DNA of 64,000 nt from Lytechinus pictus (taxonomy: Eukaryota), in the NCBI RefSeq assembly GCF_037042905.1, contig NC_087251.1, positions 22,074,001 through 22,138,000 of the forward strand, written 5' to 3'. A program made the translations under genes and the position numbers. Of the stretch, positions 49,131 through 52,100 are shown piece after piece; position 1 is the first letter of the stretch; each line of letters opens with the position of its first letter. The notes under the pieces are model-generated. The model did not search any database. It was given only the letters and a program-made list of their open reading frames with translations, and was not told the DNA's origin.

Positions 49131-52100
49131 TTAAAGGTAGAGTCCCTCTGGGGTGCCTTCAGTCTTTCGATACAAGACATTTTCTTTTGACTTCTTGAAG
49201 TCTTCATTGGTCACCTTCATCCTGCGCTCACGTAATGCCATAAGACCCGCCTCTGTACAGATAGCCTGTAGAAAGATTGTAAAAAGATAAAAATATACAC
49301 TTTTAAGAAATTTTAAGTGATTGAGAAAATTGTCAAAAAGAAATGAGCATATTGTAAACTTTATAAAAATATACATAAACCATTCAATAATGACTAAAAT
49401 GATTAATGGCTGAATTCAAGATTAAACATGAATGGCTAATGTCATACCTCACTGCCATTACATACCATTTGAGGAAGTTTTTCAGTATTATGCTAGTTTA
49501 GTTTATCTCCTTATTCAAATAAACTTCCTGTTGAGGTGGACAGGACTTGACTAATAGAGCTCAATAGCAGTTTTGGCAGGACCGTATTTTCAGATAGTAG
49601 GTAGCAAGACATAAAAAGCAGGAACAAGACATGATATTTTGCCTGTCGTTGGATTGATATCATCAATATCTAAACCAAACAGATCTTTTACATTCAGCCA
49701 CTAAACAATACAGGCCTATTTCGTATCTCATTTGTATAATGTTCATCTTGATCATTTTTTTTTTTTGGGGGGGGGGGGAGATCTCATTCTCAGAGCCACT
49801 CAGATTTGCTTTTTAGATGCTCCTTTTTTTCCAGGTCCTATTAAAACTGAAATTGAGTTACAAGACTTTGATGGTTTCAACTTTCAAGAAACAGGGTCTG
49901 AGAGCAATAAAGCAATACTCAAATATTTCATGGTAAATACTTCCCTTTCAGTAGATTCAGATGTCTGGATTCCCAGGTCCTCTTCCAATTTAAATGATAG
50001 TTTCTTAAATACTAACCTTAATATCAGCTCCTGATAAATCATCCTTTGAGGTGATGTATTCATCAAGGTTTACATCCTCAGCTAGGGTCATGCGGCTGGT
50101 GTGGATGTTGAAAATTCTCCTCTTTGTCTTCTCATCGGGGAGAGGGAATTCAATCTTACGGTCAATACGTCCTGAGAATGATAACATGAAAGACATTATT
50201 GAATATTGTAGTTATAAGATATGAACTACATCTGGTACCCATTGCAGGAAGAATTGAGTTTATGCGCAAGTAAACAAAAAATCAAGCATAAGTCCCAAAT
50301 GCATGAATTTCATTGCAACTCTCTGCAACGGGCCCCAAGACATCTCGCATCAGTTGACCTCAAATCAGTCCATCAAAAATTCAGAACAGGGCACATAACA
50401 TAAAGCTTAGCGATTGATCATGGGGTTAGTTTTACAATAATCAAGGAAATCAATAAAAAATTGAAATCAGTCCCACGATCTGCCGCTAAGCTTTATGTTT
50501 TAGGGTCAGATACAACCAAACATGTAAAGCTGTAAGTAGCCATAATGACCTTGACATTCCTAGAATCAAAAGCAACAAGCTGATTTTTTCATTAACTTGT
50601 TTACAAACACATCAATTTGTTTACTTGGTCTAATCAGGGCAGGATCTAGAGTCTCAATCCTATTAGTAACCATAATGACCTTGACATCACCCCCTGAGTA
50701 TAACCTATCAAGGCAATTGTTTATTTATTTGTTTTTACAAACACATCAATTTGTTTACTTGGTCTAATCAGGGCAGGATCTAGAGTCTCAATCCTATTAG
50801 TAACCATAATGACCTTGACATCACCCCCTGAGTATAACCTATCAAGGCAATTGTTTATTTATTTGTTTTACAAACACATCAATTTGTTTACCTGGTCTAA
50901 TCAGGGCAGGATCTAGAGTGTCAATCCTATTAGTAACCATAATGACCTTGACATCACCCCCTGAGTATAACCTATCAAGGCAATTGTTTATTTATTTGTT
51001 TTTACAAACACATCAATTTGTTTACCTGGTCTAATAAGGGCTGGATCTAGAGTCTCAATCCTATTAGTAGCCATTATAACCTTGACATCACCCCTAGAGT
51101 CAAACCCATCAAGTTGATTGAGAAGTTCTAACATAGTTCTCTGAATCTCACGTTCTCCACCTGAGTTGGATTCATACCTGTTCACATAAAAAAAAAACAT
51201 TCAAATTTAGATTAAGTCTAAATATCATGAATATGTTGTAAAATATTTAAATATAAATGTCTAAAAAGTCATCATATTTTTCAGTCTCATTTACATGCGC
51301 AACAAGACCCTGTGTATGATTCAAATCAATAATCAATCTGCGGTTGATTTTTGGTGTTAGCTCTTTGTCTTTTAAAACTCAAAGTCATATTTCTATAGTC
51401 CCTCAAAAATAAACTGTTTTTTTTCAATCATATACGCAACCTCAGTGATGCATAGTCAGGCTAGTATGACTAACATTCTCCTCATGTCATGTTTAGGAAC
51501 ACAATTTTATGTCATGGTGTGAAGGAGTCAGTGCATTACCACTGTGTTTAGCTTTTCAGCTGCACACAGTAAGATCCCAGACTTTATGATGATGAAACAC
51601 ATTTACCAAGGATGCGCATCTCTTGATGTGTTGCATATTTGAAAAGACTATCTATCTTGGACCATTGTGAGAAATGAGGTGAAGCAAGCTTGCCCATGCA
51701 TGTAGCAACAATTTTTACCAAACAATTGCATCACAGATGTCCCACTGCAACTGAGTTTTGAGTGTACAGTCCGACCTCTCTTATCCGGACACGTTGGGAC
51801 CAGCACCAATTTGGATAAGGGATTTATCTGGATCTGGGAGACCCAATATTAAGTACACACAGCTGCGCTGCTGGCTGCCTCCCCAGGCCAACGGCGGTAG
51901 CTACACGTTATCTATTGTAGTGGGCGTACAGACAGTATTCACTGCAGTGTCAGTGCAAATTATAGGCGGTATTTTTACGGAAATGAAATCGATCGATGGC
52001 CAAAACTGTTGGATAATTTACCTGATAAAATGATTGAGATATACATGTACATCGAGCATACCTCGAAAGAAAGAGAATGACTCAATGAAACTAAGTTTTA

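Follow-up and report, generated by a model that had tools for sequence, protein, structure and literature searches.

A tandem repeat of an exon end and its donor in the Lytechinus pictus PSMC1/Rpt2 gene: candidate cassette exons or a probably silent intronic minisatellite

When the end of a coding exon, together with its splice donor, recurs several times in the intron that follows, the copies may be read as additional exons or as sequence that is discarded with the intron. This question is raised by the PSMC1/Rpt2 gene in a 64,000-nucleotide stretch of Lytechinus pictus DNA (assembly GCF_037042905.1, contig NC_087251.1), referred to here as the window, in which positions are counted from the first letter. 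An initial annotation of this locus had put forward three frame-preserving pseudo-exons, with the caveat that they may be silent decoys.

The gene lies on the minus strand, as do all features of the array that it carries, and its 11 located exons, a set that excludes the first exon, form one open frame of 442 codons. The true exon from which the array derives (51026..51177, 152 nt, phase 2-1) is spliced on both sides in RNA, matches Pfam AAA and agrees with residues 295-344 of the human 26S regulatory subunit 4 in 49 of 50 positions. We take the surroundings of its Thr-Asn-Arg motif to be sensor 1, presumably followed by the arginine finger in RPGR. The intron that follows (50172..51025, 854 nt) is excised whole in every junction read and would measure 453 nt minus the three added units; the next true exon occupies 50017..50171 (155 nt). 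All ten real introns of the gene measure 478-1719 nt. A pair of perfect inverted repeat arms, each 25 nt long and separated by 743 nt, lies in the upstream PSMC1 intron at 51764-52556 and probably marks a miniature inverted-repeat transposon. Elsewhere, the window holds ribonuclease T2 gene exons on the plus strand (35656-38865, Pfam PF00445), the 3' portion of a gene that has one exon encoding a Sushi domain and ends in a long exon resembling a membrane segment plus cytoplasmic tail (2231-4059), two near-identical segments in opposite orientation that share the start of their conceptual translation and are probably a dispersed repeat (29285-29539 and 42159-42515), a 167-copy AGT microsatellite (1648-2148) and an A-rich 73-nt tandem repeat of 3.5 copies (30838-31089).

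The array comprises three near-identical, head-to-tail copies of the exon end and donor, plus a decayed fourth piece. Tandem Repeats Finder reports it at 50600-51113 (period 134, 3.8 copies, 96% matches, score 930) and, together with alignment, confirms the tandem amplification at a 133-134 nt period that had been described. The unit had been given as exon end, donor and intron; in place of about 85 and 45 nt, the exon contributes ~95 nt (51120-51026) and the intron 25 nt, with an A-rich linker of 13-14 nt completing the unit. Spacer 1 (50961..51025, 65 nt) runs from the true donor through the 25 nt of original intron, the A-rich linker and a decayed 26-nt stretch of upstream exon sequence, within which lie the CAG and, at -11, a further AG. 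It leads into the copy 1 pseudo-exon (50892..50960, 69 nt), whose donor, CAG|GTAAAC, equals the true donor and which differs from the exon at six positions. Spacer 2 (50828..50891, 64 nt) and the copy 2 pseudo-exon (50759..50827, 69 nt) follow, then spacer 3 (50694..50758, 65 nt) and the copy 3 pseudo-exon (50625..50693), the same as copy 2 at 120 of 120 nt compared. GTAAAC is present in all three full copies, as had been noted; the G at -1 is kept in one of the three and lost in copies 2 and 3, whose donors (CAA|GTAAAC) are weakened accordingly. Beyond them lies an older, decayed partial copy without a donor (~50535..50585; alignment score 85 vs 63 for the best of 500 shuffles), which is also found in a related organism. 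Across the other PSMC1 exon-intron sides no such echo is detected, the only one of 20 sides to score above its shuffles being the array itself.

Divergence within the unit is a mosaic. The copies differ from one another at 0-2 of 120 positions. Against the exon, 14 of 95 positions are changed, made up of 8 among the 26 of the 5' part and 6 among the 69 of the next stretch, and the 25 intron nucleotides are unchanged; the contrast between 5' and 3' parts (8/26 vs 6/94) is significant by Fisher's test (P = 0.002). The decayed 26-nt part of each unit is the one that holds both the AG at -11 and the CAG.

The coordinates and frame arithmetic of the initial annotation hold: each of the three cassettes (50960-50892, 50827-50759, 50693-50625) is 69 nt long, has CAG before and GTAAAC after, is in phase 1-1 and lacks a stop, and all seven inclusion patterns stay in frame, yielding 465, 488 or 511 codons. 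That every pattern is in frame, and that copy 1 retains the true donor, speaks for low-level or tissue-specific inclusion of one copy, by which Rpt2 would gain 23 residues doubling the segment before the arginine finger; we nevertheless regard such inclusion as very unlikely. The cassettes are free of stops because they were copied from coding sequence, and the in-frame option is unremarkable because, among the six AGs upstream of the copy 1 donor, two yield an in-frame length, which is the chance level. The second AG, 11 nt upstream of each CAG, would define an 80-nt frameshifting cassette. In addition, the segment hardly varies between this animal and human, yet all copies carry a replacement of Ala by Val directly before the Thr-Asn-Arg motif, at a residue identical in human.

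The splice signals also argue against inclusion. Under a crude acceptor model trained on the gene's own 11 acceptors, with real sites scored leave-one-out, the cassette CAG acceptor scores -1.1 vs -0.7 to 5.5 for the real ones, below 11 of 11, and a quarter (25%) of 325 intronic decoy AGs equal or exceed it. At 0.59, its share of pyrimidines matches the lowest among the real acceptors, and its AG-free zone spans 9 nt vs 19 to >58 nt at real acceptors; in human NF1, a new AG in a comparable zone leads to skipping (PMC7317903). The spacers of 64-65 nt fall far below the PSMC1 introns and at the threshold or lower edge of human short-intron sizes (PMC4463651); a literature search returned no minimum intron size for sea urchins. 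These values accord with the poor polypyrimidine tract and short spacers remarked upon initially. Recursive splicing at the AG|GT of each copy end was also considered and set aside, there being no supporting joint.

Direct evidence comes from four of 24 listed runs, compared with 49900-51400 at 88% likeness; among the 24 are 20 that contain the sequence, none recorded as RNA. Two of the four, X22 and X23, are raw rRNA-depleted RNA runs of one study, bear the organism label of the best match among those 20, and yielded 101 and 110 placed reads from about 6% of each run; junctions were listed from three reads upwards. The sole intron junction listed in either is 50170->51025, that of the normal 854-nt intron, with 10 and 12 reads, so that 22 of 22 listed reads are normal, and the contigs of a third run, X1, likewise contain only this joint (one contig). 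Depth over the array is zero in 10 of 10 bins (50512-51021) in both X22 and X23, no read of these runs fits two places, and the copy letter at 51078 occurs in none of 13 and none of 17 reads. Pooled, the 95% upper bound on copy inclusion is 12.7%, at the shallow depth of these two runs from one study. The unique intron bins are empty too, so that X22 and X23 do not show carriage of the array in those animals and offer no intronic baseline. Part of the depth at 51073-51174 probably stems from a paralogous subunit, judging by reads whose loose end at 51151 is foreign. At 51048, a synonymous exon allele is found in all reads (11/11 and 18/18); it is absent from the X1 spliced contig, yet present in the X1 array unit.

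With the 51026->50171 junction alone in 22 reads of two runs and one contig, the proposal of frame-preserving exons finds no support, and the caveat that the copies may be silent decoys agrees with the normal junction, the lack of copy depth and the 0 of 30 reads with the copy letter at 51078. The junctions into and out of the copies that had been suggested as a check are absent from those listed, so that the outcome named by the initial annotation as refuting its proposal, the 51026->50171 junction alone in deep RNA-seq, is obtained at shallow depth only. A stronger form of the idea, in which Rpt2 would, in some tissue or stage, gain one, two or three further copies of the 23 residues through the variable-number repeat, these being held in frame and renewed from the exon as a nascent cassette exon, is hardly probable on the same evidence; if true, Rpt2, an essential proteasome ATPase, would carry a variable insertion in its core, which would be unusual.

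The array could also act on expression while adding no residues. Splicing from a copy donor to the real acceptor meets, as anticipated by the initial annotation, a stop at 50990, and each spacer contains two overlapping AATAAA (at 50996 and 50992 in the linker of spacer 1), with 15-16 A per 20 nt in the A-rich stretch. An unproductive outlet, through copy-donor splicing and decay or through transcript ends at the spacer AATAAA, might then lower PSMC1 output as copy number rises. The identity of the copy 1 donor with the true donor is in keeping with this, as are the use of downstream donors in human CBS and IFI 6-16 (PMC1557585) and the contig depths of X1, where the array contig stands at 28.2, the adjoining intron contig at 2.9 and the exon contigs at 74-104. 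Against it, neither rRNA-depleted run shows any depth on spacer 1 or on the copies, although stop-carrying transcript forms may be hidden by decay. Furthermore, the 9.7-fold excess of array over adjoining intron in X1 may reflect either many units or RNA enrichment over the A-rich AATAAA spacers, and fits about ten collapsed units or A-rich capture equally well; contig depth is a poor measure, and the library type of X1 is not on record. Such an outlet appears quite improbable.

The initial annotation had allowed for an assembly artefact. The identity of copies 2 and 3 over 120 nt is compatible with one, and the count of three rests on the assembly, no compared contig crossing the whole array and no run being identified as that of the window's own individual. 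The contigs of two other runs, X1 and X9, contain the repeat, each with its own differences, and 14 of 95 positions separate the copies from the exon, so that an artefact is disfavoured and may be considered exceedingly unlikely. For X1, the stretch 50734-50896 is covered by a looping contig of 163 nt (133 + 30), and the contig ends at 50734 (array) and 50629 (exit) are those predicted from a 31-mer graph of the window's array. This array contig matches the exon at the positions corresponding to 51036 and 51042, and at the one corresponding to 51048 it has the exon allele of X22 and X23. A 133-nt circular RNA as the origin of this contig was rejected, as no joint for it was seen and a collapsed tandem accounts for the 163 nt.

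Run X9 bears another organism label and represents a related organism; we judge it to be DNA, as its contigs cover introns and lack a splice joint. Its spacer-plus-cassette contig has a depth of 30.9, close to the single-copy flanks (30.1 and 36.4), and two exit contigs (13.1 and 21.6) both include the decayed piece. The related organism thus possesses a single full copy in addition to the decayed piece, which suggests that the first duplication predates the split. Its intron contigs are about 10% divergent from the window (9 of 99 and 10 of 86 letters), and a 1-nt insertion makes the cassette from the CAG 70 nt long and out of frame, so that the frame offered by the CAG is not common to the two organisms. 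An upstream AG, if intact, would give an in-frame cassette of 81 nt, which may favour inclusion, by arithmetic on one relative for which only four of seven differences on the contig are displayed.

The X9 copy and exon contigs end in the same register (50778 + 267 = 51045) and restart in register, which under a 31-mer graph suggests that the copy equals the exon over about 57 nt; at 10% divergence, no differences in 57 would have P = 0.002, and at most one, P = 0.018. Full copies number three in the window and one in the related organism by depth, and the X1 unit differs, on assembly and contigs as opposed to spanning reads. The array is real, with units that differ between individuals and whose 3' ends seem to track the exon. 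Selection on the donors, suggested by the loss of the -1 G in copies 2 and 3, is unsupported as a general pattern, since the X1 unit and one X9 allele appear, from contig ends, to retain the G. A separate small inverted repeat at 50390-50500 reaches a depth of 480-580 in X9, with reads from other loci, and is a dispersed repeat; in one X9 contig there, 162 nt of the window are replaced by 97 different letters.

The pattern of substitutions, taken alone, would favour a coding role for the copies and hence inclusion. Among the five differences common to all copies, four leave the amino acid unchanged (P = 0.015 under neutrality, or P = 0.036 for four of six). The difference at 51078 arose on the exon side, since the exon of the related organism shows the copy letter there, and the P value for the synonymous excess then becomes 0.05-0.10. 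Exon-side changes must be synonymous. Together with the exon state of the X1 unit at two of these sites, this suggests that exchange with the exon could account for the pattern, no selection on the copies being needed.

Altogether, we hold with considerable confidence that the array is an intronic minisatellite of the mirage type described below, expanded and homogenised by unequal exchange, which leaves with the intron since the upstream-most donor and the true acceptor win. An old local duplication would have copied the end of the exon, donor included, into the intron before the split from the related organism, and unequal exchange may then have produced the three copies of this haplotype. 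Continued exchange would renew the 3' part of the copies from the 3' end of the exon, leaving their 5' parts to decay, a direction and relative age to which the mosaic divergence points; the copy ends that match the exon in other samples likewise suggest homogenisation between exon and copies and a variable copy number. The spliceosome would take the true, upstream-most donor and the true acceptor, removing the array with the intron, and would ignore the copies because their acceptor is weak and closely preceded by a second AG, their spacers measure 64-65 nt and, possibly, the first donor is preferred. The CAG and the intact frame would be by-products of copying coding sequence. On this reading, the array matters little alone, as one more silent exon-boundary repeat. 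Its modest value is comparative: the data suggest that a repeat of this type can outlast the separation of two species with its 3' part re-copied from a coding exon, and this re-copying can mimic purifying selection on a pseudo-exon.

A literature search found no paper on this PSMC1 locus, most subscription papers lying outside its scope. Exon-like copies in an adjacent intron, as here, are known from tandem exon duplications with alternative or mutually exclusive splicing (PMC9013439). Unlike these, the PSMC1 copies lack the exon's own acceptor and its first 57 nt, only the last ~95 of 152 nt being copied, and no inclusion is seen, within a bound of about 13%.

A closer likeness is offered by human minisatellites that reiterate a donor, exemplified by F7 intron 7 (37 bp, 5-9 copies), LMNB2 (100 bp), PDGF intron 4 (81 bp), CBS intron 13 (31 bp) and IFI 6-16 (PMC1557585); the nomenclature of the CBS repeat is treated in PMC2630376. 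As in the PSMC1 array, the first unit extends across the exon end and donor, and the downstream donors are identical or nearly so (PMC1557585). In F7, LMNB2 and PDGF, the upstream-most donor is used and the repeated donors are silent, a first-donor preference that was demonstrated experimentally for F7 (PMC1557585) and that may act in PSMC1 as well. According to the same source, the next one or two donors are partly used in CBS and IFI 6-16, which is unseen in PSMC1 at low depth; the PSMC1 unit, with its ~95 nt of exon, is longer and its copies are fewer (PMC1557585).

The closest counterparts are the "mirages" of amphioxus, described for the globins BflGb6 and BflGb9, Adh3, troponin C and PGBD5 as minisatellite-like tandem copies of exon-intron boundaries (PMC3087553, PMC3902484). 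In the same two sources, BflGb9 duplicates an exon 3' boundary, as PSMC1 does, and the mirages show haplotype differences in copy number, concerted evolution, a divergent last unit and normal splicing; the globin units measure 150-160 bp (PMC3087553) vs 133-134 here. The PSMC1 array presents a corresponding set of features, namely head-to-tail units of which the first spans an RNA-confirmed boundary, a reiterated donor, predominantly normal splicing at shallow depth, 0-2 differences per 120 positions between copies, a decayed last piece and, by contig letters and ends, exon-like 3' ends in X1 and X9. It belongs to the known kind of exon-boundary minisatellite represented by the amphioxus mirages and by human F7, LMNB2 and CBS. 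It differs from the mirages in animal group and gene and in the chance CAG that defines an in-frame cassette in its copies, and, unlike in amphioxus, the coding exon itself seems to take part in its homogenisation.
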